Below are positions 2,442 to 55,047 of a stretch of DNA of 64,000 bases, in pieces; the stretch's first letter is position 1; each line of letters begins with the position of its first letter. The translations under genes and the position numbers were made by a program. The stretch is from an uncultured Thermoleophilia bacterium. GTDB taxonomy: Bacteria; Actinomycetota; Thermoleophilia; UBA2241. The notes beneath the pieces were generated by a model, which did not search any database, had not been told where the DNA came from, and worked only from the letters and a program-made list of their open reading frames with translations. The stretch lies in NCBI GenBank assembly GCA_963715985.1, contig CAVQSP010000014.1, positions 96,001 through 160,000 on the forward strand, written 5' to 3'.

Positions 2442-2519
2442 GAGCCGCGGCGCCTGAAGAGCAGGGGGGACGGCGCTGGCGGGCCGTCCGAGGAGTCGGT
2501 ACTGGAGGAGGTTGGGCAT

Positions 2520-4159
2520 ATGGCGACAAATAAGCCCGCCGAACAGACGCTGTTCGTGCGAAAGGCCAGTGGTCTGGTCAAGGGCTGGTCGACTGGGGAC
2601 GGGTTCCGCTACTCGTTCTTCTCGACGAACATGTTCTTGGGGATCTGGGGCTTCCCTACGCCGTGTTCATCCCCGGCGGCAGCGTGTTCTGGCTGCCATC
2701 ATGATCTGTACCTTCGTGATTTCGAATTGTGGTGTACCGGGCCTGATCTCGGCGATGCCACGAGCAGGCGGTGACTACGTGTGGCAGTCACGCATGTTCC
2801 ACAGCTCGGTCGGCTTCGTGTTGGGGCCACCGGCTGGTGGTTCATCCTCTGGCTGTGGATCCCGATCTACGCCGCCCTGGGCGTGAACTCGTTCATCGAG
2901 CCCGATCCTGCGCATCGTCGGCGCGGACGGCGCCGCCGATTGGCTCGCTCACCAAGAACGGCGTCTTCGTCGCCTCGCTGGCGACGATCGCCCTTGCCGA
3001 CCTACCTCGTCGCCATCGGCATGAAGGCCTACGCCAAGTTCCAGAAGTGGGCCCTCTGGATCGGCCTTGGCGGGCTGCGCGGTGGCGGCCATCCTGCTGC
3101 TCGTGACCTCGAAGGCCAGCTTCATCGAGTCGTTCAACCGCGAGATGCTCGACCTGTACGGCGCCAAGGACGCGTACAGGCCACGCGTCGAGAGCGCCGG
3201 CGAGGGCATGCCGTCGTCCATGTTCGCCGGCAACGTCTGAGGACACGTTCAAGCTCATCCCGTTCATGGCCTTCTGGCTCCTGTGGCCGGTGTGGGGCGC
3301 CACGCTGTACGGCGAGGTCCGCGGCGCCAAGGACTTCCGCAAGAACATCTACCAGATGGCCGGCGGCCTCCTGGCGGCTGGTCGCCATCGTCATCGTCTT
3401 CCTGATCCTCGTGACGAAGACGATGGGCTGGACACTTCTTCGAGGCCACCGCCAACGGCTACATGGGTTCCCTGTACGCGTACATCGACCCCGCGACGCT
3501 GCCGGCCGGCAGCGACTACCTCTCGCCGACGGCGATGATCTCCTGGATCGTCGAGCAACAACGCCTTCCAGGTCGTCCTCATCGCGGTGATATCGCTGCT
3601 GGTGTTCGGCTGGTGGGGCACCGTGTTCCTCTCGTCGACGCGCATGATCTTCGCCTCGGCCTTCGACCGCATCCTGCCGGAGCGCGTCGCGAGGGTGACG
3701 TCGGGCGGCGTGCCGGTCAACGCGCTGCTGCTCATGGCGATCCCGTCGGTCATCGTCTCCGCCTTCTACGCCTACCAGCCCTCGTTCGTGCAGCTCACCT
3801 ACGACGCCACGCTGGTGATCGCCGTCATGTTCTTCGTCACAGGTCTCGCCTTCATGGTGATGCCGTGGCGCGCCAAGTCGATCTGGGACAACTCGGCGAT
3901 TCCCAAGATGAAGATCGCCGGCATCCCGATCCTGGCGATCGCAGCGCTCATCTACGCGATCTTCATGGGGTTCAACCTCTGGCTCTGGTTCTACGACAAG
4001 ACCAACACCTACGGCATCGGCTACAAGAACAAGAACTCCATGATCTTCATGGGCATCCTGTACGTCGCCGCCATCGTGATCTGGATCGTCGCCTGGGCCG
4101 TGCGCAAGCGCCAGGGCATGGAGCTCGAGGCTGTGGCCAAGGAGATCCCGGTCGAGTGA
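2520..4159 (+). pseudogene. APC-family amino acid/amine permease, multiply frameshifted (pseudogene or assembly error)
   Basis: N-terminal LFVRKASGLVK, MPRAGGDYVWQSR, YGEVRGAK, RMIFASAFDRILP, C-terminal KEIPVE spread over ORFs 2520, 2512, 2781, 3266, 3463, 3587; SD GGAGGAGG upstream. Confidence 0.8.
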
Positions 4160-4263
4160 TCGCCGCAGGCGGATCACCGTCGCGAGGTGACGGAGTCGCT
4201 GAGCGACAATGACTCGTCGAACAGGGGAACGATCGCGAGATTGATTCAGCAGACGCAGGCGCC

Positions 4264-4302
4264 GGCGGCGGCCCGGTGATCTTCCGGGCCGCCGCCGTCT
4301 CT
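4264..4302 (+). terminator. GC-rich hairpin between permease and mtbB
   Basis: GGCGGCGGCCCGG-TGATCTT-CCGGGCCGCCGCC followed by GTCTCT. Confidence 0.55.
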
Positions 4303-4405
4303 GCTCCCGAGTGGGCGTCGCGAAGATGCAGGCGCTCCGCATGAGATCCTCGTGGAGAGGAGCGTTCTACGTGACAACGCCGACGGCAGAGGAGGCCGCG
4401 CTTTC

Positions 4406-5806
4406 ATGAAGATCCTCACAAGAATGGGTGACAGCTCGAACGTCGAGCTGACACGCGACGAGCTGCGCCAGGAGTTCATCGAGGGCTCCGAGCTCGCCGC
4501 GAAGAAGGCCAAGATCCCCGTCCTCACCGAGAACGAGATCGACTACCTCGTCGACATGTTCGCGGCGCCCACGCGTATCTGGGGCGTGCAGCGCGGTAAC
4601 GAGGTCGTCATGACCAAGGACGGCTGCGTCAACGCCCTCAACTCCTCGCGCATGTCGAGCGGCGTGGTCGCTCCTGTCAACCGCGAGGTGGGCGTGCGCC
4701 TCTTCGAGTCGATGCTCGGCTTCGACTCCATGGAGGTCGCGCACAACGACTACTCCGTGAAGCCGCAGCGCTTCCTCAAGGCGCTCGAGCAGCTCCACAT
4801 GGAGATCCTCCAGGAAGTCACCATCTTCCCGCTGTTCTACGGCTTCATGCCCAACCTGGGCCTGTACTACCGGCCGGACGGCTCGTTCGAGAACCCATCG
4901 GACCTCATGCCGCTGGGCAAGATCCCGGAGGCGCGCCGCACGCAGGAAGAAGCGCTCGAGAAGTGCATGGAAGACTGCATGGAGATGAGCGACTGCATGC
5001 TCGAGATGGGCGCCGACGGCATCGACTACGACACCACCGCATCCACCGGCGACGCCGAGTTCCTGGCCGTGCTCAAGACCACCGAGCACGTGGCCGGCGA
5101 GACGGGTCTGCCCGTCGAGGTCGGCATGTCGGCCGAGATGGTGCTCGGCTTCCACGGCGAGCTGGAGTACAACGGCAAGCGGCTCGCCGGCATGTGGCCG
5201 CACCAGCAGCTGCAGGTCTGCGAGGAGGCCGGCGTCGCCATCTTCGGCCCGGTCAGCAACACCAACACCAGGAAGACCGTGCCGTGGAACCTCGCCCGCG
5301 CCCTCACCTTCGTGAAGGCCTGCACCGAGATCGCCAAGATCCCGGTGCACCCCAACGTCGGCATGGGCGTCGGCGGCGTGCCGATGTTCGAGACCCCCGC
5401 CGTCGACGTCGTGACCCGCTGCAGCGCGGCCATGATCGAGATCGGCCACGCCGACGGGTTGTAGGTCGGTACGGGCGACCCAGCCGGCATGCACATGGCG
5501 CATCTGCTGGCCTCGTCGATGGGTGGCATCCGGGCTACCGGAGATCTGGTGGCCCGCATGCAGCTCCAGAAGATGAGGATCCACGAAGCCAAGAAGTACG
5601 TGGCCGACAAGTTGCACGTGACGCCGCTCGACCTGTCCGATCCGACGATGATGCGAGGGCTCAGGGAAGAGCTCGACATCGGCGTTGTGACCGGCGTCCC
5701 GGGCGTCGCCAAGGGCATGGCCGCCAAGGTGCGCATCGCCGAGCTCCTCGACATCGAGATCAACAGCGTGGAGCAGTTCAAGAAGAAGACCGGTCTGCAC
5801 ATGTGA
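4406..5806 (+). CDS. mtbB: Dimethylamine:corrinoid methyltransferase MtbB, pyrrolysine-containing (amber readthrough at codon 353)
   Basis: SD AGAGGAGG then ATG 4406 (MKILTRMGD); ORFs 4352..5464 and 5489..5806 are in one frame, joined as [42 protein letters not shown], matching the MtbB DG(I/L)-O-(I/V)GxGDP...GDLVARM motif; 466 aa. Confidence 0.93.
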
Positions 5807-5909
5807 GCCGGCGGCTGGCGGCCGCGGCCTTCGGGTCGCGGCCGTCCGGCTCCAGCAGATCACGAGCCCCGGCCGCCTGAGGCGGTCGGGGCCCGTTGGC
5901 TTCTGACGC

Positions 5910-6031
5910 GCGCCCCTTGGGCGCGGGGCTTCCGCCGGGTGCGTGCGCCCCTTGGGCGCGGGGCCTCCGCCGGGTGCGTGCGCCCCTTGGGCGCGGGGCC
6001 TCTCGCCGGGTGCATGCGCCCCTTGGGCGCG
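5910..6031. repeat. Tandem 35-36 bp repeat, about 3.5 units
   Basis: GCGCCCCTTGGGCGCG at 5910, 5945, 5980, 6016 with near-identical intervening sequence. Confidence 0.9.
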
Positions 6032-6171
6032 CAGCGCGCCTCGACCGCCTCGCCTGCCCCGACCGCCGCCGCTCAGTCTCGCGCCCGTGTGTCCGCGGGC
6101 ATGTTCCGATCCGCGCTTTCAACTGGGCGTACGTTTGGACGTGTGGTTGCCTGAAACCGTCGTCGGGAACA

Positions 6172-6209
6172 TGCCGGCGCCTGCCGGCGCCTGCCGGCGC
6201 CTGCCGGCG
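6172..6209. repeat. 10-bp microsatellite (TGCCGGCGCC) x about 4
   Basis: atgccggcgc ctgccggcgc ctgccggcgc ctgccggcgg. Confidence 0.85.
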
Positions 6210-6290
6210 GCATCTCGCGCTGAGCGTGCCGTCGGCTGCCAGGGGCGGCCGCGAACGGCGTGCGCCTGCCGGCGCCGAGGCGTGGAAGCC

Positions 6291-7217
6291 TCACACGGCC
6301 TTGAGCCACTCCTCGTAGTCGCGGTGGGCGGCGTTGGCCTGCATGCGGTGGATGCGGTCCATGCCGTACCCGTAGAAGTCGAAGTCGAGCTTGGAGAGCG
6401 TGGCCTGGATCATCGCCCAGATGCTCCACCAGAGGTCGGCGACCAGCTTGTGGAGCATCATGCGCGCGTAGCGGTGCTCGTCCATGCCGCCGCAGTAGGC
6501 GGTGAGCACGGCCGTCTCCTCGTCCTCGGTGAGCGGGGTCTCCACGCAGAAGTCGCCGAGGTCGAAGTACGGGTCGCACATGCCGCCGTACTCCCAGTCG
6601 ATGATCCACATCTTGCCGTCCGGGGCGAGGATGAAGTTCTCGCTGAGCAGGTCGTTGTGACACGCCGTGAAGGCCGGCTGGTCGCGCTTCATCGCTTCTT
6701 CGATGCGCGCGCCCTGCTCGAGCATCCAGTCGGTCTCCTCGGGCCGCGGGGCGCCCACGTCCTGCGCCATGCTCAGGTACTGGCGGATCATGTCGAAGAC
6801 GTGGATCTCGTTGTCGAACACCGCCTTGTCGTGATACGTGCGCATGGCGGCGACGATCTTCTCCAGGCGGTCGGGGTGGCCGGCGATGCTCTCGGGGTGC
6901 ATGGTCTCGCCGGCGATGAACGGGACCACCGTGCAGTCGCCGGGCTGGATGACGTGCAGGAGCGGCGGCGTGACGCCGGCCGCCGCCGCCGCCCGGTGGT
7001 TGTTGAGCTCGCGGGTGCGGTCGATGAAGGTCTCGGTGCCCTCGCCGGGGATGCGCAGCACGAACTTGCCGGCGCCCGGGCTGCCGTCGGCGCCGTCGAC
7101 GGTCACCACGTAGTTGCGGTTGGTGATCCCGCCGCCGAGCTCCTCACAGACGATCTCCCTGCCCTGCCACTCGCCGATCCTCGCGATGACGTCATCGACG
7201 CTGATGCGCTCTGCCAT
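6291..7217 (-). CDS. Choline/ethanolamine kinase family phosphotransferase
   Basis: GGITNRNY, FVLRIPG, Brenner motif CHNDLLSENF, IDWEYGGMCDPYFDLG. Confidence 0.88.
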   Translation of the reverse strand: MAERISVDDVIARIGEWQGREIVCEELGGGITNRNYVVTVDGADGSPGAGKFVLRIPGEGTETFIDRTRELNNHRAAAAAGVTPPLLHVIQPGDCTVVPFIAGETMHPESIAGHPDRLEKIVAAMRTYHDKAVFDNEIHVFDMIRQYLSMAQDVGAPRPEETDWMLEQGARIEEAMKRDQPAFTACHNDLLSENFILAPDGKMWIIDWEYGGMCDPYFDLGDFCVETPLTEDEETAVLTAYCGGMDEHRYARMMLHKLVADLWWSIWAMIQATLSKLDFDFYGYGMDRIHRMQANAAHRDYEEWLKAV

Positions 7218-7338: not shown

Positions 7339-8721
7339 TCAGAGGGCCGGGACCTCGAAGCCCATCCCGGCGAGGTCGGCGCGGACGTCGTCCATCGCCT
7401 TCTGGTACTCGCTGTTCACGATGGCCTTCGTCTTGGGGTCGTAGACCTCCTGGAAGGTCATGCCCTTGTCCGGGTCCTTCAGCTTGTCGCCGAAGAGCGG
7501 GAAGATCTTCTGGGCGATCGGCTCCGCCTCGGCGCGCGTGAGCTTGGCCGCCGCGAGGCCCATCTCGGCGTGGAACTTGTGGTCGTCCGGCACCAGCGAG
7601 TCGGACTGCACGGCCATGGCCGGGTGCCCGGAGAAGACGTTGCCGCCGGAGGTGACGATGGCGAGCAGGTAGCAGGCCATCTCGTAGTGGTACTGCTTGG
7701 TGCCCGAGCCGCCGCCCAGGTACGGCAGGTTGACCATCGGGTAGCCCATGTTGCGGCCGATGGCGGCGTTGCTCATGGCGATGGCCCAGATGAGCGGCTT
7801 GGTGGACGAGAGGTGCAGCTTGCTGTGCAGCGGCGCGTTGTAGTGGTAGGTGCCGCGGAAGACCAGGTTGCCCATGATCATGTAGGCCGTGGCGGTGACG
7901 GCCACGCCCTCGGCGCCGCCCGCGTACCCGCCGAAGAGCGGGGTGGAGGTGGAGCCGATGTTGGCGCTGATGCTGTTGTAGAAGGCCACCTTCTGCAGCG
8001 CCTCGTACCCGACGACCATCTCGGAGAGGAAGTCGATGAGGAAGCCGTCGCTCGGGCGCAGGCCGAAGTCCGGGTAGCTGGCCGCGAACATCGAGGCCGG
8101 CTGAGAGGCGGCGGAGATGCCGTTGATGATCGGGAGGCCTGAGCGGCCGGAGCGGCGGATGCCCTCACGCGCGAGACGCACCGTCTTGCAGGCGGCGAGG
8201 ATCTCCTGCGGCGAGCGCACGCGGGAGTCCTTGCCGCGCAGGTGCAGGATGCTGGGCACGCTCACCGAGTCGACGATGTTGAAGGACGCCATCTTCTCGA
8301 CGGTGTCCATGAACACTTGTTCGTCGGTGGTGTAGATGCCGCCGCCCACGTGCACCCACGGGCGGTCGTCAGTGGTGTCCGGGCGCCGCCCGTACATGGT
8401 CTTGCGCTCGCGGCCCTCGCCGAAGGTGGCGCCGTTGGGGGCCTGCGAGCAGGCGAGCAGGATCTCGTCGCGCGTGAACTGCATCACGCGGTTGGTCTCC
8501 GGGCAATACGCCCCGGCCTCGGCGATGAGGTCCACGGCCGCCTGGAAGACGCGGTCGGTGAGGTCGTCGTCGGTGTTGATGATGGTCGCCTTGTCCCACT
8601 TGACCGCGTGGCGCGCGATCACCTCGGCGAGGGTGGGCACGTAGCGCTTCATGTAGTAGTCGGTCTCGGACGTGAGCGGACCGGTCTCTGCGCGGTCGAA
8701 CACCTCGATCAGGTCGATCAT
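7339..8721 (-). CDS. mtmB: Monomethylamine methyltransferase MtmB-family protein lacking pyrrolysine
   Basis: FDRAETG, GAYCPETNRV, SPQEILA, PLFGGYAGG, GMTFQEVYD match MtmB; the Pyl region GRPGMGV-O-GPETS reads GRSGLPIINGISAAS with no TAG. Confidence 0.85.
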   Translation of the reverse strand: MIDLIEVFDRAETGPLTSETDYYMKRYVPTLAEVIARHAVKWDKATIINTDDDLTDRVFQAAVDLIAEAGAYCPETNRVMQFTRDEILLACSQAPNGATFGEGRERKTMYGRRPDTTDDRPWVHVGGGIYTTDEQVFMDTVEKMASFNIVDSVSVPSILHLRGKDSRVRSPQEILAACKTVRLAREGIRRSGRSGLPIINGISAASQPASMFAASYPDFGLRPSDGFLIDFLSEMVVGYEALQKVAFYNSISANIGSTSTPLFGGYAGGAEGVAVTATAYMIMGNLVFRGTYHYNAPLHSKLHLSSTKPLIWAIAMSNAAIGRNMGYPMVNLPYLGGGSGTKQYHYEMACYLLAIVTSGGNVFSGHPAMAVQSDSLVPDDHKFHAEMGLAAAKLTRAEAEPIAQKIFPLFGDKLKDPDKGMTFQEVYDPKTKAIVNSEYQKAMDDVRADLAGMGFEVPAL

Positions 8722-8769: not shown

Positions 8770-9417
8770 TCAGGAGACCAGCTTGCTGGCGAGGGTGACC
8801 GCATCGTAGGCGTTGGCGGCCCAGCCGTCGGCGCCGATGGATGCGGCCCACTCCTCGGTCGTGGCACCGCCACCGACCATGACCTTGTACTTGTCGCGCG
8901 TGCCCTGGTCCTTGAGTGCGTCGATGACGTCACGCTGACCGATGAGCGTGGTGGTGAGCAGCGCCGACATGGCGATGATGTCGGCGCCGACCTCGTTGGC
9001 CTTGTCGACGAACTTGAACAGGTCCACGTCGATGCCGAGATCGTGGACCTCGTAGCCCGACGTCTCGAAGAGCAGCTTGAGGATGTTCTTGCCGATCGAG
9101 TGCAGGTCGCCCTTGACGGTGCCCAGCACCACGATGCCCTTCTTGGGGCCGCTGCCGCCGGCTTCCTTGATCAGCGGCTCGAGAACGCCCATCGCCGCCT
9201 GGAAGGCGAGCGCCGACTGCATCAGCTCGGGCAGGAAGATCTCCTCGTCCTCGAACTGCTGGCCGATGACGTTCAGGCCGGGCAGCAGGCCCTGGTCGAT
9301 GATCTCCTGCGCGCTCATGCCGTCGGCGAGCGCCTTGTCGACGGACTCGAGCACGGCGTCCTGGTCCTGGTCGACGACGGCCTGCTTCAGCTGGTCATGC
9401 ATCGCTTCGTTTCCCAT
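8770..9417 (-). CDS. Methyltransferase cognate corrinoid protein (MtmC/MtbC/MttC family)
   Basis: Cap domain FEDEEIFLPELM; B12 motif GTVKGDLHSIGKNI, MSALLTTT, MVGGG. Confidence 0.93.
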   Translation of the reverse strand: MGNEAMHDQLKQAVVDQDQDAVLESVDKALADGMSAQEIIDQGLLPGLNVIGQQFEDEEIFLPELMQSALAFQAAMGVLEPLIKEAGGSGPKKGIVVLGTVKGDLHSIGKNILKLLFETSGYEVHDLGIDVDLFKFVDKANEVGADIIAMSALLTTTLIGQRDVIDALKDQGTRDKYKVMVGGGATTEEWAASIGADGWAANAYDAVTLASKLVS

Positions 9418-9477: not shown

Positions 9478-10932
9478 CTACGCAGTGACCTCGGTGTCGG
9501 TCCACACGGCGTCGCCGGCCACGAGGCCGGGGAACTCCGCGCGGATGCGCTCGTCCAGTTCGGCCTCCCACACGGCCGGGTTGGGCTGGGACAGGATGCC
9601 GCGGGCCACGGCGCGCGCGCGGCTCTGGGCGTCCGGCTTGCCGGCCGCCTCCCACTGCGCGCGCATGCCGCGGTCGGCGACCTTGGGGAAGAGCGCCGTG
9701 GTCTTCATCAGCGACTTGGTGTGGCGGCTCTTCATGTAGTCGCCGCCGGGGCCCACTTCGGCGATGACATCCAGGGCGAGGTTCTCCTCGCTGTAGTCCA
9801 GGCCGCGGACGACGCGCTTGTTCATCAGCGCGATCTCGTCGTCCACCACGGCCTTGCCGAAGTCGAAGGCCATGAGAGAGCTGAACAGGCCGCCCATGTT
9901 GAGCAGCGTCGCGCCGGCCAGCACCGAGGCCATCGTGTTCATGCCGGTCTCGTAGCCGGACTGGGCGTCGTTGCTGTGCGCGTTGGTGAGGCCGATGTAG
10001 CCACCCGTGGGCACGTGGTAGAAGTGCCCGAGCTGGGCCTGCGCCATGAAGAGGACGCCGCTCTCGATGGCGCCGGGCGCGTAGGCGCCGCTGCGCATAT
10101 CGGCGACGGTGGGCAGGCTGGCGTAGATCAGCGGCGTGCCCTCCTTGACCATCTGCTGGAACACGGAGATGGCGAGGAACTCGGCGTTGCCGACCACAAG
10201 GGTGCCCATGAGGGTCATCGGCGAGGTGAGGCCGGCGTTGGGCACCACGGTGGTGTACACCGGCAGGCCCTCGCCGGTGAGGTACATGACGGCCTCGGTG
10301 GAGTCCACGTCCATCGTGAGCGGGCTCACCATCGGGCAGTAGTGATGGTTGATGCAGGGGCGCTCGCGGTAGGCGTCCTTGCCGCCGGCGATGAGCTCGC
10401 CGAGCTTGAGGACCTGGTGCAGGTCGTCCATGTTGGGCGTGTTGCTGCGTACCGGCTTCAGGCAGTTCTTGAGAGCCGGGTAGAAGCGGCTCAGGCTGAA
10501 CTGCCCGACGGGGGCGTCGTCGGCCAGCGTGGAGATGGAGAAGATGTCGAAGCCCTTGAGCTCGTTGATGAGGTGGGCGATGTTGGCGATGTCGGTGGAC
10601 GTGGCGCGCCGTTCGACGCCGGTGACCGGGTCCACCACGTTGGGCGCGGAGCTGCCGGTGACGACCACGGGGCCGCCGTCGGGGATGGTGCGGTCGAACT
10701 GCGGGTCGCGGCCGCGGAACGTGAAGCGCGGCGGCACGGCCCGCATGTAGCGGTCGACGATCTCCGGCGAGAACTTGACGAGGCCCTCGTCCGATACGGT
10801 GCAGCCGTGGGCCTTGAAGACGTCGCGTGCCTTTGGGTGGTGCGCGAGAATGCCCACGTTCTCGAGCACCCAGAGCGACGCCTCGTGGACGCGTGCCACC
10901 TGCTCTGTGGTGAGCAACTCTGCGTACTTCAT
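9478..10932 (-). CDS. mttB: MttB-superfamily methyltransferase, non-pyrrolysine (MtgB/MtcB-like)
   Basis: VHEASLWVLENVG, GLTSPMTLMGTL, DMRSGA, DAQSGYE, VVDDEI, IAEVGPGGDY; Leu at the Pyl-equivalent site (YIGLTNAH); TAG stop. Confidence 0.9.
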   Translation of the reverse strand: MKYAELLTTEQVARVHEASLWVLENVGILAHHPKARDVFKAHGCTVSDEGLVKFSPEIVDRYMRAVPPRFTFRGRDPQFDRTIPDGGPVVVTGSSAPNVVDPVTGVERRATSTDIANIAHLINELKGFDIFSISTLADDAPVGQFSLSRFYPALKNCLKPVRSNTPNMDDLHQVLKLGELIAGGKDAYRERPCINHHYCPMVSPLTMDVDSTEAVMYLTGEGLPVYTTVVPNAGLTSPMTLMGTLVVGNAEFLAISVFQQMVKEGTPLIYASLPTVADMRSGAYAPGAIESGVLFMAQAQLGHFYHVPTGGYIGLTNAHSNDAQSGYETGMNTMASVLAGATLLNMGGLFSSLMAFDFGKAVVDDEIALMNKRVVRGLDYSEENLALDVIAEVGPGGDYMKSRHTKSLMKTTALFPKVADRGMRAQWEAAGKPDAQSRARAVARGILSQPNPAVWEAELDERIRAEFPGLVAGDAVWTDTEVTA

Positions 10933-11119: not shown

Positions 11120-11902
11120 TCATGCGGAGACCACCCGCAGGCCGCGGCGCAGCATCTCGTCGCGCACGTCCTCGTCCACGTCGTCGACGACGACCGTCTG
11201 CACGTCGTCGAGGCCGCAGATGACGAAGTCGCCCACGGCGCCGAGCTTGCTGCGGTCGGCGAGCACGATGACCTCGCCGCGCGTCTGGCGGATCATGGCG
11301 CGCTCCACGCCGGCGAGGCCGATGCTCGCCGTGGTCACGCCCTCCTCGAGGCTGAGGCCGTCCGCTCCGAGGATGAACCGCGAGGCGTGGAAGCTGCCCA
11401 CGGCCTCGATGGCCATGGGCCCCTCGAGGGTGTTGCTGTGCGGCCGGAAGACGCCGCCGAGCAGGATGACCTCGAGCGCCGAGTCCTGCGCGGACGTGAG
11501 CGCGCCCACGTTGTGGGTGACGATGCGCGCGTGGACCTGCGTGTCGACGTGCGCGAGCACCTGGGTCGCGGTGGTGCCGGACCCCAGGAACACGGTCTCG
11601 CCGGGGAGGATCATGGCCGCGGCGGCGCGGGCGATGCGGTCCTTCTCGGCCGTGTGGGTGCGCACGTTGGTCACGTAGCGGGGCTCCTCCACGATGTGCT
11701 GCTTCAGGATAGCGCCGCCGTGGGTGCGCGAGAGGAGTCCGTCGTTTTCGAGCCGCTCGAGGTCGCGGCGGATGGTCATCTCCGAGACGCCGAGGACCTC
11801 GCTGAGGGACGAGACGCGCACGCCGCGTTGCTGGGCGAGGATCTCAAGGATCCGCCCCTGGCGCTCGGCGGGAAACATCTCGCGCGTGTCGGGCGCTGAC
11901 AC
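11120..11902 (-). CDS. DeoR/GlpR family transcriptional regulator
   Basis: ERQGRILE, GVSEMTIRRDLERLE, RTHGGA, EKDRIA, GSGTT, ADRSK. Confidence 0.93.
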   Translation of the reverse strand: MSAPDTREMFPAERQGRILEILAQQRGVRVSSLSEVLGVSEMTIRRDLERLENDGLLSRTHGGAILKQHIVEEPRYVTNVRTHTAEKDRIARAAAAMILPGETVFLGSGTTATQVLAHVDTQVHARIVTHNVGALTSAQDSALEVILLGGVFRPHSNTLEGPMAIEAVGSFHASRFILGADGLSLEEGVTTASIGLAGVERAMIRQTRGEVIVLADRSKLGAVGDFVICGLDDVQTVVVDDVDEDVRDEMLRRGLRVVSA

Positions 11903-12171: not shown

Positions 12172-13191
12172 TCAATAGTCCGCGTCGGCCGCCTTTGTCT
12201 TGCCCCAGAACGTCTTGTACACGAGCGCCGTGTACACGAGCACGATGGGGCAGAAGATGAGCGCCACGATGAGCATCACCAGCAGCGTCAGGTGACCCGA
12301 CGAAGCGTTGGTCACCGTGAGGCTGGTCTCTGGCGGCGTGCCGCGCGCCGGCACCATGTCGGGGAAGTTGCCCACGGCGGCGATGCCGGCCAGCCCGATG
12401 ATGATGACGGCCGAGCCGAGGAACGACTTGAGCTCGCCGCCTTCCTTCATCATCTGCCAGGCCGTGTACAGCACGCCGAGGAGGAAGATGACGAGGAACA
12501 GCCAGCCGGCCGGCCGGCCGAACACGTTGTCCGACGCGCGCGAGACCCAGAGGATCGTCGCCAGGGACGTGGCCACGGCCAGCACGGCGCACACCACGAA
12601 GCTCAGGCGCCGCCACTTGAGGGCGCGCTCGTGCAGCTCGCCCTCCGACTTGACGGCCAGCCAGGCCGCGCCGTGCTGTGCGATGAGACACAGCCCGGTC
12701 ACGCCGACCAGTAGCGAGTACGGGTTCAGCAGCTCCCAGAAGGTGCCGATGTAGTTGCCCTGCGCGTCCATGGGCACGCCGCGGATGACGTTGCCGAGGG
12801 CGACGCCGACCAGGAGAGCAGGCACCAGGCTGCCGAGGAAGAAGGCGCCGTCCCACACTCTGGCCCAGCTCGAGTCGCGGTGGCGGAACTCGAGCGACAC
12901 CGCGCGCAGGATCAGGCCGAAGAGCACGAGCATGATGGCCAGGTAGAACCCACTGAAGGTCATGGCATAGATCATGGGGAAGGCGGCGAAGATGGCGCCG
13001 GCGCCGGTGATGAGCCACACCTCGTTGCCGTCCCAGATGGGGCCGATCGAAGCACGGATGACGGAGCGGTCGGCTTCGCTGCGCCCGAGGAAGGGGTACA
13101 GCACGCCGGCGCCCAGGTCGAAGCCGTCGAGGATCACGTAGCCGGTGAGCAGGAACGCGACGAGGAAGAACCAGATGTTGGCCAGGGTCAT
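12172..13191 (-). CDS. cydB: Cytochrome bd ubiquinol oxidase subunit II
   Basis: LDGFDLGAG, IGPIWDGNEVWLI, LILRAVSLEFR; start at MTLANIW. Confidence 0.95.
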   Translation of the reverse strand: MTLANIWFFLVAFLLTGYVILDGFDLGAGVLYPFLGRSEADRSVIRASIGPIWDGNEVWLITGAGAIFAAFPMIYAMTFSGFYLAIMLVLFGLILRAVSLEFRHRDSSWARVWDGAFFLGSLVPALLVGVALGNVIRGVPMDAQGNYIGTFWELLNPYSLLVGVTGLCLIAQHGAAWLAVKSEGELHERALKWRRLSFVVCAVLAVATSLATILWVSRASDNVFGRPAGWLFLVIFLLGVLYTAWQMMKEGGELKSFLGSAVIIIGLAGIAAVGNFPDMVPARGTPPETSLTVTNASSGHLTLLVMLIVALIFCPIVLVYTALVYKTFWGKTKAADADY

Positions 13192-13195
13192 CTCG

Positions 13196-14569
13196 TCACC
13201 TCCCCGCACCGGCGGGAGCGGGCGCCACGCCCTTCTCCGCCTTGAGCATCTCGGCGACGTCCTCGGGACCCTTGCGGATGATGCCGACGAAGATCCGCAG
13301 CCAGGCGACGAAGAGCACCAGGTAGATCAGGCCGAAGAGGCCCAGCGTCGTCCAGATCTCACCCGTGGAGACGAGTGGCGAGACGGCGTCCGTGGTGCGC
13401 ATGAGACCCTGGACGACCCAGGGCTGGCGTCCGACCTCCGCCGCCATCCAGCCCATGTTGATGGCGAACTCAGCCAGCGGGATGCAGATGATCAACAGCC
13501 ACAGCAGCCAGCGCGCGTTCTCCAGCTTCTTGAAGATGTACATGAGCACGGAGACCAGGAAGACCAGCCCGAAGAAGATGCCCAGGGCGATCATGATGTG
13601 GTAGCTCTGGAAGACGGCCGGGATGGGTGGCCGGTCGGCGGCCGGCACTTCCGTGTAGCCCTGGACCGTAGCGTCGGGGTTGAGATGCAGGATCATGCTG
13701 AGGCCGTTGGGGATGCCGACGCCGTGCGTGTCGTAGGTGCCGTCGGCCTCTTTCGAGAGCCAGCCGAACAGCCACAGCGTGGCGCCGTCCTCGGTGTCGG
13801 TGACGTTCTCGAAGGCGGCCATCTTGACCGGCTGCTTCTCGGCCACCACCAGCGCGCCCCAGTGGCCGAGCAGAGGCATGGCGATGGAGATCACGAGACC
13901 CACGCCGAGCGCCCAGATGATGGTCTTCCGGGCGAAGTCAACGTGCTTCTTCTTGAGCAGGTAGTAGGCGCACACACCGGCGGCCACGAAGCAGCCCGTG
14001 ATGAGGGCCGCGGCGATGGTGTGGAAGTAGCGCGGCCCGATGGACGGGTTGAGCGCCGCTCCCCAGAAGCTCGTGAGGATGGCCTTGCCGTTCTCCACCT
14101 TGTAGCCGGCCGGCGTCTGCATCCAGGAGTTGGCGATGAGGATCCAGAGGGCGGAGAGGAGGGAGCCGATCCACACCAGCCACGCGGAGATGTAGTAGAA
14201 GCGCTTGGAGACCTTCCTGCGACCGAAGAGCAACACGCCGAGGAAGGTGGACTCGAGGAAGAAGGCGATGAGGCCTTCGGCCGCGAGCGGCGCTCCGAAG
14301 ATGTTGCCGACGAAGCGCGAGTAGTTGGCCCAGTTCGTGCCGAAGGCGAACTCCATGGTCAGGCCGGTGGCGACGCCGATGGCGAAGGTCGCCGTGAACA
14401 GCTTGATCCAGAAGTTCGAAGCTGCCTTGTCGGCGGGGATGCCGCTCTTGTAGTAGCGGCGCTCCGCGAGGACCACCATCATCCCGACCCCGATGCTGAT
14501 GGGCACGAAGATGAAGTGGTAGCCGACGGTGAACGCGAACTGGATGCGGGCGAGCATTACGGCATCCAT
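13196..14569 (-). CDS. cydA: Cytochrome bd ubiquinol oxidase subunit I
   Basis: ARIQFAFTVGYHFIF, FGTNWANYS, FFLESTF, QPVKMAAFE, AEVGRQPW. Confidence 0.96.
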   Translation of the reverse strand: MDAVMLARIQFAFTVGYHFIFVPISIGVGMMVVLAERRYYKSGIPADKAASNFWIKLFTATFAIGVATGLTMEFAFGTNWANYSRFVGNIFGAPLAAEGLIAFFLESTFLGVLLFGRRKVSKRFYYISAWLVWIGSLLSALWILIANSWMQTPAGYKVENGKAILTSFWGAALNPSIGPRYFHTIAAALITGCFVAAGVCAYYLLKKKHVDFARKTIIWALGVGLVISIAMPLLGHWGALVVAEKQPVKMAAFENVTDTEDGATLWLFGWLSKEADGTYDTHGVGIPNGLSMILHLNPDATVQGYTEVPAADRPPIPAVFQSYHIMIALGIFFGLVFLVSVLMYIFKKLENARWLLWLLIICIPLAEFAINMGWMAAEVGRQPWVVQGLMRTTDAVSPLVSTGEIWTTLGLFGLIYLVLFVAWLRIFVGIIRKGPEDVAEMLKAEKGVAPAPAGAGR

Positions 14570-15431: not shown

Positions 15432-15791
15432 GGGGGCGAACAGGTCTCGACATGGGCTGTACCGCGGTGGGAGCAGCAGGCCGAGGTCCGGTGGCCTCGT
15501 TAAACTGCCGGAACACACTACTTGCCGAGAATAACTCTCTCGCACTCGCTGCCTAATTAGTTAGGCAACGCATCGCGCCCGGCTCGCCCATGGCCGGGAT
15601 CCGCGGTGTCATCTAGTGGGCTGGGGTGCGGTCGCTCTGCTCCGGGCGAGCGCATCCGAGACTGATCGGGGCTGGCGACCGGCACCCCTGCCGACGCGGG
15701 GGCCGCGAGCGAGACTAATGCGACGGCTAAGCCTGTAGAGACTCCGCCGAGGCGTCCGTGGACGCGGGTTCGATTCCCGCCGCCTCCACCA
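15432..15791 (+). ncRNA. ssrA: tmRNA; tag peptide AENNSLALAA
   Basis: 5' GGGGGCG pairs with 3' CGCCTCC-ACCA including the G3.U alanyl identity pair; T-arm GCGGGTTCGATTCCCGC; tag frame 15524-15556 ends LALAA-TAA. Confidence 0.95.
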
Positions 15792-51395: not shown

Positions 51396-51764
51396 TCAGG
51401 CGCCGCGGAGCACGCCGCGTCGCTCGTACACCGTGGCGGCCTCGAGCACGAGGGCTGCGCAGAGCGGCGCGCCGGCCGCCTCCAGGCGCGCCGCCACGGC
51501 ACGCAGCTCGGCGGCCGTGGAGCGGCCCGGGCGCAGGGCCTCGTAGATGCCCAGGACCTCGTCGTCGGGAAGGGCCGTGAGCTCCGCCGCGCGGCGGAGG
51601 TTCTCGCCGAGCTGAGGGTTGCCATGCTGCTCGGCGACGGCCGCCTGGTGGCGCAGGGTCTCGGGGTGGACCCGCAGGTCCTCTGGAGAGAGCTCGCCGC
51701 GCACGGCCGCCTCGAGGGTGATCTCTTCGAGGGGGCGGCCGCTGAGGGCGCGCCGCGCCGTCAT
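51396..51764 (-). CDS. pduE: B12-dependent diol/glycerol dehydratase small subunit
   Basis: SGRPLEEITL, ETLRHQA, NLRRAAEL, IYEALRPGRST, EAATVYERR. Confidence 0.9.
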   Translation of the reverse strand: MTARRALSGRPLEEITLEAAVRGELSPEDLRVHPETLRHQAAVAEQHGNPQLGENLRRAAELTALPDDEVLGIYEALRPGRSTAAELRAVAARLEAAGAPLCAALVLEAATVYERRGVLRGA

Positions 51765-54142
51765 CGCGCCGCCTCCACGTCCACCGGCGGCGCGCCGGGC
51801 GCCGTCTCGCCGCGCTCGACGGCGATGAGGGAGACCACGTCGGCGTGGTAGCGCGCCTCGATGGCCTGCTCGGTGTACGGGTTGCGAACCGGCGCCGGCC
51901 GCTCGCCCCTGGCGTGACGGGCCGCGTTGGCGCCAAGCGCGCGATACATCTCGAGGGTCAGAAGCGGCGCGATCGAGAGCAGTTCCAGGCAGGCCAGCGG
52001 CGGCAGGCCACGGCGGTGGATCAGCGCCGTGCCCTTGGCCTGCAGACCGACGGCGACGCCGGAGCCGGCCAGATCGGCGGCGGTCAGCCCGATGACGCCG
52101 AGGTCCACGGTGGACGGCACGCGCACGAGGCGGGCCGTGCAGCCCTCGTCCTCGATGCCGGCGACGATCTCGGCGAGCACGTCGCCCACCGGCAGCCCGG
52201 ACATCGTCAACCAGAGCCGGGTGGCGAGCGCCGGTGAGAGGCCGACGCAGACCTCGCGGGGGTCCGTGCCCGGCCGGGCCGGGCCCCGTTCGACGAGGCG
52301 GAACGAGGCGGCGCCGGCCGCGTGCTGCGCCAGCAGGTCGTCTCGCGAGCGCTGCTGGCGGATGCCGGCCATCTCCTCCCGGCGGGCCGGCGAGACCTCG
52401 TAGCCGGTTCCCGGCCCCTGGTAGTCGTTCGGGTCCGTGACCTTGGACAGCACGTTCATCTGCTCGTCGAAGATCGCGGCCGTCTGCAGGTAGTCCCCGG
52501 CTACACGGGCGCGGCCCATGGCGAGCACGCGCTCCGCCTCCTCCTCGAACCCCGTGGCCCAGAGTGCGCGCACCACGTCGAGGATGCCGATCTGCTTCTC
52601 GAGGATCGCGTCGGCCGCCCGCAGCACCGCCTGCGGGTCGGGCGGCGAGATGTCTTTGGAACCCTCCGCGATAACGACTTCGGCCATGTGCTCTTCAGTG
52701 AAGCCCGCTGGAGGATGGCCGCCGGGCGCGCGGCCGGGTGCCGAGCCGTCAGCCTCTCCCTCGACCAGGCCCAATTCCCAGTACGCCGCCAGCGTCGCCT
52801 GTGCGGCCCGCTCGCGCACCTCGCGCAGCCACTCCTCGCTCACCGGCCGCAGTGCCCCGTCCACGCCCCAGTCGCGCTGCAGCACGAGGAAGTCGTCCAG
52901 GTCCTCGCCGTTGAAATTGGAGGGGCCGAACATGTTGTCGTAGCGCAGGACCGCGCCGAAGCCCGAGAAGATGAAGTCCGAGCCCGCGAGGAAGAGGGGC
53001 ACAGTGTGCGCCGTGCGGCGCATGTCCGACTCGCTGACAAGCGAGTCGTTGCCGGAGCACGACTCCAGATCGCGGAGCATGACGAGGAGGTTCTCGGCGA
53101 GCAGCTCGCGCATGCCGTCCGGCACGCTTCCGACTACGCTCGCCCCGTCGATGCCGCCGTTCTGCACGCCCTGCGCGCCCATGGCGCGGGCCAGCGCGAC
53201 GCAGCGGGACTCGAGGCTGAACATGGAGCGGCCTTCGGCGGCGCCCATGAGCGCCTCCGCGCCGCCGCCGCTGGTGACGCGCATCTTGAGGCCGCGCGAG
53301 GCGTACGCCGAGCAGAGGAAGGCCTTGGACCAGGGTGTGTCGTCGCCGTCGAGGAAGGCCTTCTCGGTGCCGTAGAGCGAGACGGTCTCGGCGTAGGTGG
53401 TGAGACCGCGCAGCCCGAGGTCGAGCTCGAGGGCCTCCTCCACGGAACACTGCGTGAGTGCGCCGGCGGCACCGACCTGCGAGCCGATGAGCACGGCGAG
53501 GGCGTTGGACGGCGCATCCGCGTTGACCGGCACCGTGGTCTCGACCTCGCGGAACCCGAAGGCGACCGCGGTGGCCGCGTCGGCGGCCAGCAGCAGCGGG
53601 TCGTCGAGCAGGTTGGTGACGTGCGCCTGACTGCTGGGCGTGCGGCGCACGCGCATCTTGGAGACGGCCATCTGCAGCTCGACCGGCCGGAGCACGGCGA
53701 CGACGCGGGCGAGCTTCTCCGGGGTTGCGCCGCCGGCGAGGCGCACGACGTCCTCGCGCGGCACGGAGGGGCCGACGATCAGGCGGGCGAACGCGACGTC
53801 GTCGAGGGCGTTCGCCTCCTCCGCGACCGTGACGTCCAGGCCGCGAGCGGCGATGAACTCGTCGATGAGGTCGAAGGCGGTCGCCGGCCTGCCGTCGAGC
53901 TCGGTGACGCGGCCGCGTTCGTCAACCTGAACGGAGGGCTCGGGGTCGTTCGCGCTCGCGAACGCGACGAGCCCGGCCTCGTGGTCCTCGCGCGCTAGGC
54001 CATCGAGGTTGACCGGTCGCCTGTCGAGGCCGGCGAAGCGACCGAGCCGCGGCGGCGTGCTGCCCGGGGCGCGACCTGGAGTGCGGTCCGGCCGTGCGCC
54101 GGTCCGGTCGCTCGCGTCGGGTCTCGCGCCTTGGTCGGCCAT
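51761..54142 (-). CDS. pduC: Diol dehydratase, fused large and medium subunits
   Basis: RPVNLDG, QAHVTN, ETTV, TQCSVEEA, YAETVSLYGT, DGDDTPWSK, YASRGLKMR, DYLQTAAI; C-terminal beta domain AGIEDEG, GSGVAVGLQAKGT, LELLS. Confidence 0.9.
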   Translation of the reverse strand: MADQGARPDASDRTGARPDRTPGRAPGSTPPRLGRFAGLDRRPVNLDGLAREDHEAGLVAFASANDPEPSVQVDERGRVTELDGRPATAFDLIDEFIAARGLDVTVAEEANALDDVAFARLIVGPSVPREDVVRLAGGATPEKLARVVAVLRPVELQMAVSKMRVRRTPSSQAHVTNLLDDPLLLAADAATAVAFGFREVETTVPVNADAPSNALAVLIGSQVGAAGALTQCSVEEALELDLGLRGLTTYAETVSLYGTEKAFLDGDDTPWSKAFLCSAYASRGLKMRVTSGGGAEALMGAAEGRSMFSLESRCVALARAMGAQGVQNGGIDGASVVGSVPDGMRELLAENLLVMLRDLESCSGNDSLVSESDMRRTAHTVPLFLAGSDFIFSGFGAVLRYDNMFGPSNFNGEDLDDFLVLQRDWGVDGALRPVSEEWLREVRERAAQATLAAYWELGLVEGEADGSAPGRAPGGHPPAGFTEEHMAEVVIAEGSKDISPPDPQAVLRAADAILEKQIGILDVVRALWATGFEEEAERVLAMGRARVAGDYLQTAAIFDEQMNVLSKVTDPNDYQGPGTGYEVSPARREEMAGIRQQRSRDDLLAQHAAGAASFRLVERGPARPGTDPREVCVGLSPALATRLWLTMSGLPVGDVLAEIVAGIEDEGCTARLVRVPSTVDLGVIGLTAADLAGSGVAVGLQAKGTALIHRRGLPPLACLELLSIAPLLTLEMYRALGANAARHARGERPAPVRNPYTEQAIEARYHADVVSLIAVERGETAPGAPPVDVEAAR

Positions 54143-54276
54143 GTGGTCATCCTCCCGCGCGGATTCTAGCGGGTCGGGCGGGTGGCGCCCAGTAGGCAAG
54201 CTATCCAGTCGTGGCCCCCTGCGGTAGTCTCGTGATGAGTGCTCCCGCATGAGACCAGGACACAGGAGGGGTTCGC

Positions 54277-55047
54277 GTGAGGGTGAAGGACAAGGTGTGC
54301 TTGATCACGGGCGCGACGTCGGGCATAGGTGCCGCGACCGCCACGGTCTTCGCGGCCGAGGGGGCCCGCCTCGTCCTCACCGGCCGTGACGAGCAGCGCG
54401 GCGCCGACGTCGCCGCCGCGTGCCAGGCGCGGGGCGCCGCCGACGTGGTCTTCACCGCCGGCGATGTGACGGACGAGGCCGATGTGAACGGGATCGTGGC
54501 GGAGGCTCTGGCGAAGCACGGTCGAATCGACGTGCTCTTCAACAATGCCGGCACCATCGCTGATGGCACGGTGGCGACGACCAGCCAGGAGGCCTTTCGC
54601 AGGGTATTGGAAGTGAACCTGCTCGGGCAGTTCCTGTTCGCCCACGCCGTCGTCCCGGTCATGCAGCGTCAGGGGAGCGGCGTCATCGTGAACAACGCCT
54701 CCGACTGGGGACTGGTGGCGGGCCCGGAGGCCGTGGCCTACTGCTGCAGCAAGGCGGCTGTCGTGATGCTGACCAGGTGCATCGCTGTCGACCACGGGGC
54801 GGAAGGCATCCGGTGCAACGCCGTGTGTCCGGGTGACACGCTGACTCCCATGGTGCTGGAGGCGCGGGCGGGCCGTGACGGGGCGAGCGCTGCGGACTTC
54901 GTCGCGGCCGCGTCTCAGAGCGTGCCGCTGCGGCGAATGGCGGAGCCGGAGGAGATCGCTGCCGTCGTGCTCTTTCTGGCGAGCGACGAGTCGAGCTTCA
55001 TGACCGGCTCTGCGGTACCGGTCGACGGCGGCAACACCTGCCGGTGA
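54277..55047 (+). CDS. Short-chain dehydrogenase/reductase
   Basis: TGATSGIG, NNAG, YCCSK, PGDTLT, DGG. Confidence 0.93.
   Translation: MRVKDKVCLITGATSGIGAATATVFAAEGARLVLTGRDEQRGADVAAACQARGAADVVFTAGDVTDEADVNGIVAEALAKHGRIDVLFNNAGTIADGTVATTSQEAFRRVLEVNLLGQFLFAHAVVPVMQRQGSGVIVNNASDWGLVAGPEAVAYCCSKAAVVMLTRCIAVDHGAEGIRCNAVCPGDTLTPMVLEARAGRDGASAADFVAAASQSVPLRRMAEPEEIAAVVLFLASDESSFMTGSAVPVDGGNTCR

Follow-up and report, generated by a model that had tools for sequence, protein, structure and literature searches.

The stretch analysed here (the window) comprises 64,000 nucleotides, positions 96001-160000 of contig C14 in a 4.35-Mb metagenome-assembled genome (MAG) of 22 contigs, and carries on its forward strand, at 4406..5806, a gene for a dimethylamine:corrinoid methyltransferase (mtbB) whose single in-frame TAG very probably encodes pyrrolysine (Pyl). 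The gene has 466 codons; it starts with the ATG at 4406-4408, which by direct reading follows a Shine-Dalgarno-like AGGAGG (4390..4395, + strand) at a spacing of 10 nt, and terminates with the TGA at 5804-5806. Translation table 11 splits the frame into two open reading frames (ORFs) on the same strand and in the same frame, 4352..5464 (370 aa) and 5489..5806 (105 aa). An earlier interpretation made from the letters alone (the sequence-only reading) had claimed that the two are one frame parted by a single TAG at 5462-5464, and this is exactly what is present. When TAG was translated as Pyl (O), 4406-5806 gave 466 residues with O at position 353 and no other stops, which confirmed that the TAG is codon 353 of 466 and that the GDLVARM block downstream is intact, as had also been stated; it stands in an unbroken ATGDLVARM stretch 3' of the TAG. 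The GC content at the third codon position of the window copy remains at 0.85-0.99 across 4350-5800, with no break at the TAG. The read-through product was matched by the Pfam family Dimeth_Pyl (PF09505) with 608.2 bits over positions 5-463 of 463 and by the NCBIfam equivalog TIGR02368 with 498.4 bits (cut-off 369.1; profile positions 7-465 of 466), so that the proposed match to MtbB holds over the full length and above the equivalog cut-off. The substrate, dimethylamine, is predicted from family membership only. An AlphaFold model that was based on 14 sequences (mean predicted local distance difference test score 83.8, predicted template modelling score 0.89) has alternating strands and helices in a TIM-barrel-like arrangement, and residue 353 lies within the strand 351-355. 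Searching the PDB by sequence with the mtbB product gave no match, and a Foldseek search against the PDB found generic TIM-barrel enzymes only, led by betaine-homocysteine methyltransferase, with TM scores of 0.3-0.4 by query length; neither MtmB nor MttB was among the matches listed.

The strongest evidence for the identity of codon 353 comes from its conservation. The UAG at 5462..5464 (+ strand) stands in the context TTG TAG GTC GGT ACG GGC GAC CCA (5459-5482), and in an alignment of MtbB sequences a single column is TAG in 69/69 rows, within the motif DGL-O-VGxGDP. These rows comprise six of the eight full-length copies of this genome, 59 loci from actinobacterial MAGs and four Bacillota loci; the remaining two own copies (L004 and L006, on the minus strand of their loci) are outside the alignment, and one TAG is listed in each. 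The same TAG also forms positions 1-3 of the Rfam model RF02509, which is described below. An alternative holds that a nonsense mutation or a misassembly created the TAG and that the locus is either a pseudogene or a pair of ORFs unrelated to each other, as the split under table 11 would suggest. However, the conserved column includes Bacillota genes at 47-48% identity, the eight codons from the TAG to the next ATG (VGTGDPAG) are part of the conserved motif, and the Rfam mtbB element begins at the TAG itself. Moreover, when 59 orthologous loci are compared with the window copy, the first, second and third codon positions differ by 0.114, 0.075 and 0.246 on the 5' side of the TAG and by 0.121, 0.052 and 0.278 on the 3' side; the differences fall mainly at third positions on both sides, and the tail is therefore under protein-coding selection. 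We consider the chance of such a pseudogene negligible and this explanation refuted for practical purposes.

Homologous proteins in databases point to the same site. Of the 120 best homologues listed for a collection of 5.8 billion proteins, most have a length of 352-353 aa, which identifies them as products of gene callers cutting at the TAG. Among the more distant representatives in a library clustered at 50% identity, proteins of 354-356 aa with 36-45% identity stop at ...DG(L/V) directly before the site, while separate proteins of 103-116 aa begin directly after it. That the TAG lies at the Pyl site of the family, as the sequence-only reading had supposed, is thus borne out both by the RF02509 match that begins there and by the distant 354-356 aa pieces that end there. 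According to that reading, the corresponding Pyl of Methanosarcina MtbB lies near residue 356, in the motif DGI-O-IGVGDP. In one full-length homologue from the representative library (P0128, 463 aa, 39% identity), the Pyl column is occupied by W within an altered motif (DML-W-ATTGDP), and this protein may be a Pyl-free relative of MtbB. A few short representatives have Q, L or S in this column.

The machinery for Pyl synthesis and insertion was searched for in the whole genome, and pylB, pylC, pylD, tRNA-Pyl(CUA), pylSn and pylSc were all found within one stretch of about 8 kb on contig C13, pylB being frame-split. ARAGORN placed tRNA-Pyl (cta) at C13:555126-555198, and this is the sole tRNA with a CUA anticodon that it found in the genome. 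In its fold, the acceptor stem has 7 bp, a single base precedes the D stem, which has 4 bp and a loop of 5 nt, the anticodon stem is long and the variable region measures 2 nt; a compact D arm and a short variable region are expected of tRNA-Pyl. The protein matches lie well above their cut-offs for PylC (317.9 bits against 248.3), PylD (199.5 against 150.05), PylSc (TIGR02367; 316.5 against 178.15) and PylSn (TIGR03912; 124.6 against 51.15). The gene order is pylB-pylC-pylD-pylT, with pylSn about 1.1 kb downstream and pylSc about 4 kb downstream on the opposite strand; an ORF with a radical-SAM domain and a corrinoid-protein gene lie between pylSn and pylSc. C13 also bears one mtbB and one MttB-family gene with a TAG. 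The window itself has no pylTSBCD, as had been noted from its letters; the RNA genes and elements detected in it are a transfer-messenger RNA (tmRNA) and the RF02509 match only. Taken together, the pyl genes on C13, the MtbB match and the alignment at the Pyl site support the earlier proposal that this organism decodes UAG as Pyl.

The genome has eight intact and three fragmented mtbB loci with one TAG per locus (contigs C4, C7, C9, C10, C11, C13 and C14), nine MttB-family genes with a TAG in one shared column (out of 89 matches to the superfamily), and two mtmB copies with a TAG beside Pyl-free MtmB homologues, four of them intact and one frame-split. There are also 22 corrinoid-protein matches, four of which exceed the pyl_corrinoid cut-off, two RamA-like activases and seven matches to the URO-D family as methyltransferase candidates. 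The nearest corrinoid gene above the cut-off is at C14:94850-95425 (minus strand), about 0.6-1.2 kb before the start of the window. At C11:37927-40956 (L082 4928-7957), one mtbB copy and an MttB-family domain share a single frame with no stop between them (Dimeth_Pyl at 20-471, MTTB at 501-963), and this frame may be either a natural fusion or the result of a lost stop or a frameshift.

When one genome per species was scanned, 63 mtbB loci were detected in other genomes. Fifty-nine of them have 82-91% identity to the window copy, and the titles of their MAGs read Thermoleophilia for 42, Actinomycetes for 11 and Actinomycetota for 6; the remaining four, at 47-48% identity, come from Bacillota or Syntrophomonadaceae MAGs. 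Because the relatives at 82-91% identity carry these titles, the host is, on sequence grounds, most likely an uncultured wetland actinobacterium of the class Thermoleophilia, which agrees with the actinobacterial origin that had been suspected at the outset. PylSc was detected in 60 of 300 other genomes sampled from the class, distributed by family as 51/55 in the window's own family, 9/55 in one other and 0/190 across the other ten. PylB was above its cut-off in 47/60 sampled members of the window's family.

We estimate at roughly 0.9 the probability that 4406-5806 encodes one 466-residue MtbB in which UAG 353 is translated as pyrrolysine. Several observations weigh against it. The window and the pyl genes lie on separate contigs of a MAG with an estimated completeness of 88.8% and a contamination of 7.29%; pylB is found in two frames; TAG is a common terminator in this genome; the permease gene upstream of mtbB is frame-broken; and no corrinoid-protein gene is adjacent to mtbB on its strand. 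The first of these would fit a scenario in which the contig with the pyl genes derives from a contaminant, or in which UAG is read as another amino acid by a near-cognate tRNA or another suppressor. Yet C13 itself carries a TAG mtbB and a TAG MttB-family gene, GC is uniform over the contigs (69-71% on every one), PylSc occurs in 51/55 sampled members of the family, and the only CUA-anticodon tRNA found is tRNA-Pyl, which makes either version of this scenario highly improbable.

The state of pylB deserves closer attention. Its two pieces, C13:551949-552686 (303.8 bits) and 552649-552972 (125.8 bits), are each below the cut-off of 348.2, and the frameshift amounts to one base at about L011 5668-5672 (pylB being L011 4818-6009). 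Were it real, this strain would be unable to make Pyl, and UAG would mostly terminate translation to give a dead product of 352 residues unless Pyl or a precursor were scavenged. Other genes in the assembly are frame-broken as well (the permease, several MttB and mtbB fragments), while rpoB is in one frame, and assembly errors are therefore not everywhere; the pylB frameshift could stem either from misassembly at this place or from true decay of the gene. Four wetland metagenome runs that contain 0.68-0.73 of the mtbB words were checked over pylB by means of their Logan contigs. A 228-nt contig of one run (X4), which comes from a near-identical strain and has six further differences, omits exactly one base at L011 5671 and so restores the pylB frame; the other three wetland runs had zero cover at the frameshift. 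Six RNA runs contain just 0.10-0.13 of the sampled words. A broken Pyl synthesis is further at odds with the intact PylB of most sampled family members and with the intact mtbB, TAG MttB-family and TAG mtmB genes that the genome has kept; given this retention, an ancient loss of Pyl is unlikely. We thus regard the loss of Pyl synthesis in this strain as improbable, and translation of UAG 353 as pyrrolysine remains the preferred explanation.

The use of TAG as a stop was assessed in 2020 ORFs selected for their length and their GC content at third positions; this approximate gene set covers 55% of the genome. TAG terminates 381 of them (about 19%), compared with 1569 for TGA and 70 for TAA, and the genome encodes an intact release factor 1 (RF1; 479.7 bits, cut-off 423.25). 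Since TAG is a common stop and RF1 is present, UAG is read in two ways, as a stop and as a Pyl codon, and termination at codon 353 must compete with Pyl insertion. Ambiguous decoding of UAG has been described for other users of Pyl. For comparison, the text of Borrel et al. (2014, PMC3941956) gives amber stops of no more than 11% in the seventh order of methanogens. TAG also serves as the terminator of one own mtbB (C4:33498-36305, which is L084 5499-8306) and of six orthologues (L017, L021, L023, L031, L053 and L054); the C4 copy is followed, in the same frame, by an MFS transporter gene. A genome-wide list of TAG read-through candidates based on third-position GC consisted mostly of in-frame neighbouring genes and was discarded.

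Downstream of the UAG, the mRNA carries a conserved element. The Rfam family PYLIS_2 (RF02509, 'pyrrolysine insertion sequence mtbB') was matched by cmscan at 5462..5561 (+ strand) with 63.2 bits, against a gathering score of 36, and an E-value of 7.6e-13 over model positions 1-100 of 100; the model opens with UAG, which coincides with the TAG at 5462. A consensus structure 3' of the mtbB UAG had already been drawn by Theil Have et al. (2013, PMC3639795), as the text of that paper indicates. Within the element, an 8-bp hairpin with an AGAU loop (helix 2 of PYLIS_2; 5534..5553, + strand) lies 72 nt after the U of UAG and spans the codons A-T-G-D-L-V-A in the window and A-A-G-D-L-V-A in most orthologues. 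RNAalifold, applied without reference to the Rfam family, singled out this hairpin on 55 distinct orthologous stretches, in which 99.3% of the hairpin cells are paired. Six of its pairs are fixed by the amino acids, and two are formed by synonymous third positions. The first of these synonymous pairs is CG in 28 orthologues, AU in 14, UA in 8, UG in 3 and another combination in 2, and the second is GC in 20, CG in 17, UG in 12, UA in 5 and another combination in 1. The covariation score was 0.294, compared with 0.073 +/- 0.014 for shuffles (0/500 reached the observed value) and at most 0.145 for slid partners. On a tree of 53 full-length orthologues, built with the hairpin columns removed and with the own paralogues, the four Bacillota loci and seven partial loci left out, the states of the two pairs change at least 14 and at least 11 times, respectively, with 52/53 and 51/53 tips paired, and the G:C state arose in at least four places. 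The synonymous entropy of the hairpin codons is high (1.3-1.6 bits); considered with the covariation, these codons therefore vary freely but together. That U:G pairs are tolerated points to an RNA of the sense strand and not to a palindrome in the DNA. All eight pairs are kept in 57/70 rows; in the own paralogues and in the Bacillota genes, the inner five to seven are retained.

Helix 1 of PYLIS_2 finds no support in this lineage, with 65.8% of its cells paired, no compensatory changes and 3/11 pairs that never pair. The match to PYLIS_2 thus runs over its full length from the UAG, with helix 2 kept through compensatory changes and helix 1 not kept here. A helix proposed by RNAalifold that pairs the UAG itself (columns 1-26) had no pair that changed on both sides, and the synonymous-codon entropy along the gene (windows 0.16-1.1, mean 0.61) showed no unique dip after the UAG. 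A genome scan with Rfam PYLIS_1 (RF01982) gave two sub-threshold matches (53.8 bits against 70) in the two TAG mtmB copies and none in mtbB. The helix-2 hairpin may affect the reading of the UAG, and it provides a concrete handle for testing an mRNA signal in bacterial Pyl insertion. A bolder proposal would be that, in a bacterium with RF1 and with TAG at the end of about one gene in five, the hairpin is a working recoding signal that favours Pyl over the stop in mtbB and that, more broadly, a whole family of wetland Thermoleophilia has inherited the use of Pyl vertically, with some 20 Pyl enzymes in each genome, and forms an overlooked bacterial sink of methylamines. We regard this combined proposal as speculative and rather unlikely. 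If it were true, a cis signal would contradict the prevailing view, in which Pyl is inserted independently of cis elements, and the sink would compete with methylotrophic methanogens.

A plausible mechanism can be outlined by analogy with the Methanosarcina MtbB/MtbC and the bacterial methylamine and betaine systems. The upstream APC permease, which is kept in relatives, would probably import the amine. At UAG 353, Pyl-tRNA would compete with RF1, possibly under the influence of the hairpin 72 nt downstream, and the Pyl imine of the full-length MtbB would bind and activate dimethylamine. One methyl group would then be passed to the Co(I) of a corrinoid protein, with the release of monomethylamine, and a second methyltransferase would pass the methyl group on, in bacteria probably to tetrahydrofolate, while a RamA-type activase would re-reduce oxidised corrinoid. 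Because the host is no methanogen, the methyl acceptor is presumably not coenzyme M and the pathway not methanogenesis.

When compared with Methanosarcina, in which mtbB1-3 are read through an amber codon, the window gene belongs to the same family and has a single in-frame UAG at the Pyl site, and the genome likewise has corrinoid proteins and RamA-like activases. It differs in that it belongs to a bacterium of about 70% GC with split pylSn/pylSc and no corrinoid gene adjacent to mtbB; this comparison is one of features and not of sequence identity. The split synthetase and the presence of pylBCD and pylT in one neighbourhood are as in other bacterial pyl cassettes, and pylSc on the opposite strand and pylSn about 1.1 kb past pylT are features of the cassette in this genome. 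According to the text of Guo et al. (2022, PMC9630628), bacterial PylSn and PylSc are always separate genes. Multiple Pyl genes in one bacterium are known from the delta-1 symbiont of Olavius algarvensis, a deltaproteobacterium for which Zhang & Gladyshev (2007, PMC1976440) listed six Pyl-mtbB and two Pyl-mttB genes with pylT, pylSn, pylSc and pylBCD, in their text the largest bacterial set of that time. As in the window genome, several Pyl-mtbB/mttB copies accompany the pyl genes there; its eight Pyl genes, as given in that text, compare with eight intact mtbB, nine TAG MttB-family and two TAG mtmB genes here.

The novelty that the sequence-only reading attached to the gene was overstated, given what is in print. 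Guo et al. counted PylRS genes in 'two Actinobacteria', a count that a review of 2025 repeats, and Ellenbogen et al. (2023, PMC10805028) reported that some Actinobacteriota MAGs of Stordalen Mire, a site of thawing permafrost, express Pyl-encoding mttB and mtbB, naming the genus Bog-752. According to the text on these MAGs, they share the phylum, the type of habitat and the genes with the window genome, and one MAG titled 'bog_752' contains an orthologue of the window gene (L058) with 86% identity and a TAG at codon 353. The passages on the trait in both papers amount to a sentence each and contain no pyl locus, family spread or mRNA element. Searches of the full-text literature, supplements aside, returned nothing relevant on pyrrolysine in Thermoleophilia and, for Bog-752, Ellenbogen et al. 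only; no matching title or abstract was found under pyrrolysine and Actinomycetota, again supplements aside. The locus is thus a real Pyl-encoding mtbB, with a Pyl trait that has already been briefly reported for Actinobacteriota, and it adds a well-documented expansion of the genetic code for an actinobacterial lineage of high GC content. These bacteria are probably able to remove methyl groups from tri-, di- and monomethylamine in wetlands, and this ability has a bearing on the methylamine supply to methylotrophic methanogens. As gene callers cut mtbB at the TAG, surveys that rely on called proteins see fragments only.

Directly upstream of mtbB is the frame-broken APC-family permease gene (2517..4159, + strand), of which only the last 190 codons (3587-4159) form a clean frame. 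Matches of the permease from one relative (L021) to the window by tblastn fell in two frames, and the third-position signal of coding DNA is absent over about 2550-3450, which places the break between about 2517 and 3590. The two relatives that were inspected have an intact AA_permease_2 gene of 542-551 aa that ends about 130-210 nt before mtbB, and among 44 loci that match the 190-aa permease piece, most have it immediately before mtbB. Before the permease, a metallophosphoesterase-like ORF (1497-2441, + strand) has a shift in its third-position GC frame at about 1650-1950; both breaks may be either assembly indels or decay. A consensus scan over 4100-6350 detected neither sigma-70 promoters nor intrinsic terminators.

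Downstream of mtbB, the genes lie on the minus strand. The first is a choline/ethanolamine-kinase-family gene (6291-7217), whose best NCBIfam match, GntI (a kinase of the guanitoxin pathway), is far below its cut-off (178 bits against 357) and which is kept beside mtbB in about 20 relatives. It is followed by an operon-like row: a Pyl-free MtmB homologue (7339-8721; 225 bits over the full length), in which ordinary residues replace Pyl and which is 94-95% identical in three relatives; a corrinoid protein (8770-9417; 202.7 bits against the pyl_corrinoid cut-off of 215.3), which is part of this Pyl-free operon; a Pyl-free MttB-family gene with TAG as its stop (9478-10932); and a DeoR regulator (11120-11902). 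The cytochrome bd oxidase genes cydAB (12172-14569) come next and suggest that this Pyl-using degrader of methylamines tolerates or uses oxygen to some extent. The remainder of the window is ordinary and holds no further Pyl candidates. Five stop-to-stop frames with a TAG after 15 kb were considered and rejected, since their Pfam domains, where found, start after the TAG. The tmRNA gene (15432-15791, + strand) encodes the tag peptide AENNSLALAA. Towards the end of the window, the large and medium subunits of a B12-dependent diol/glycerol dehydratase share one frame (51761-54304, minus strand), and elsewhere in the genome a tRNA-Sec is present at C13:139538-139635.

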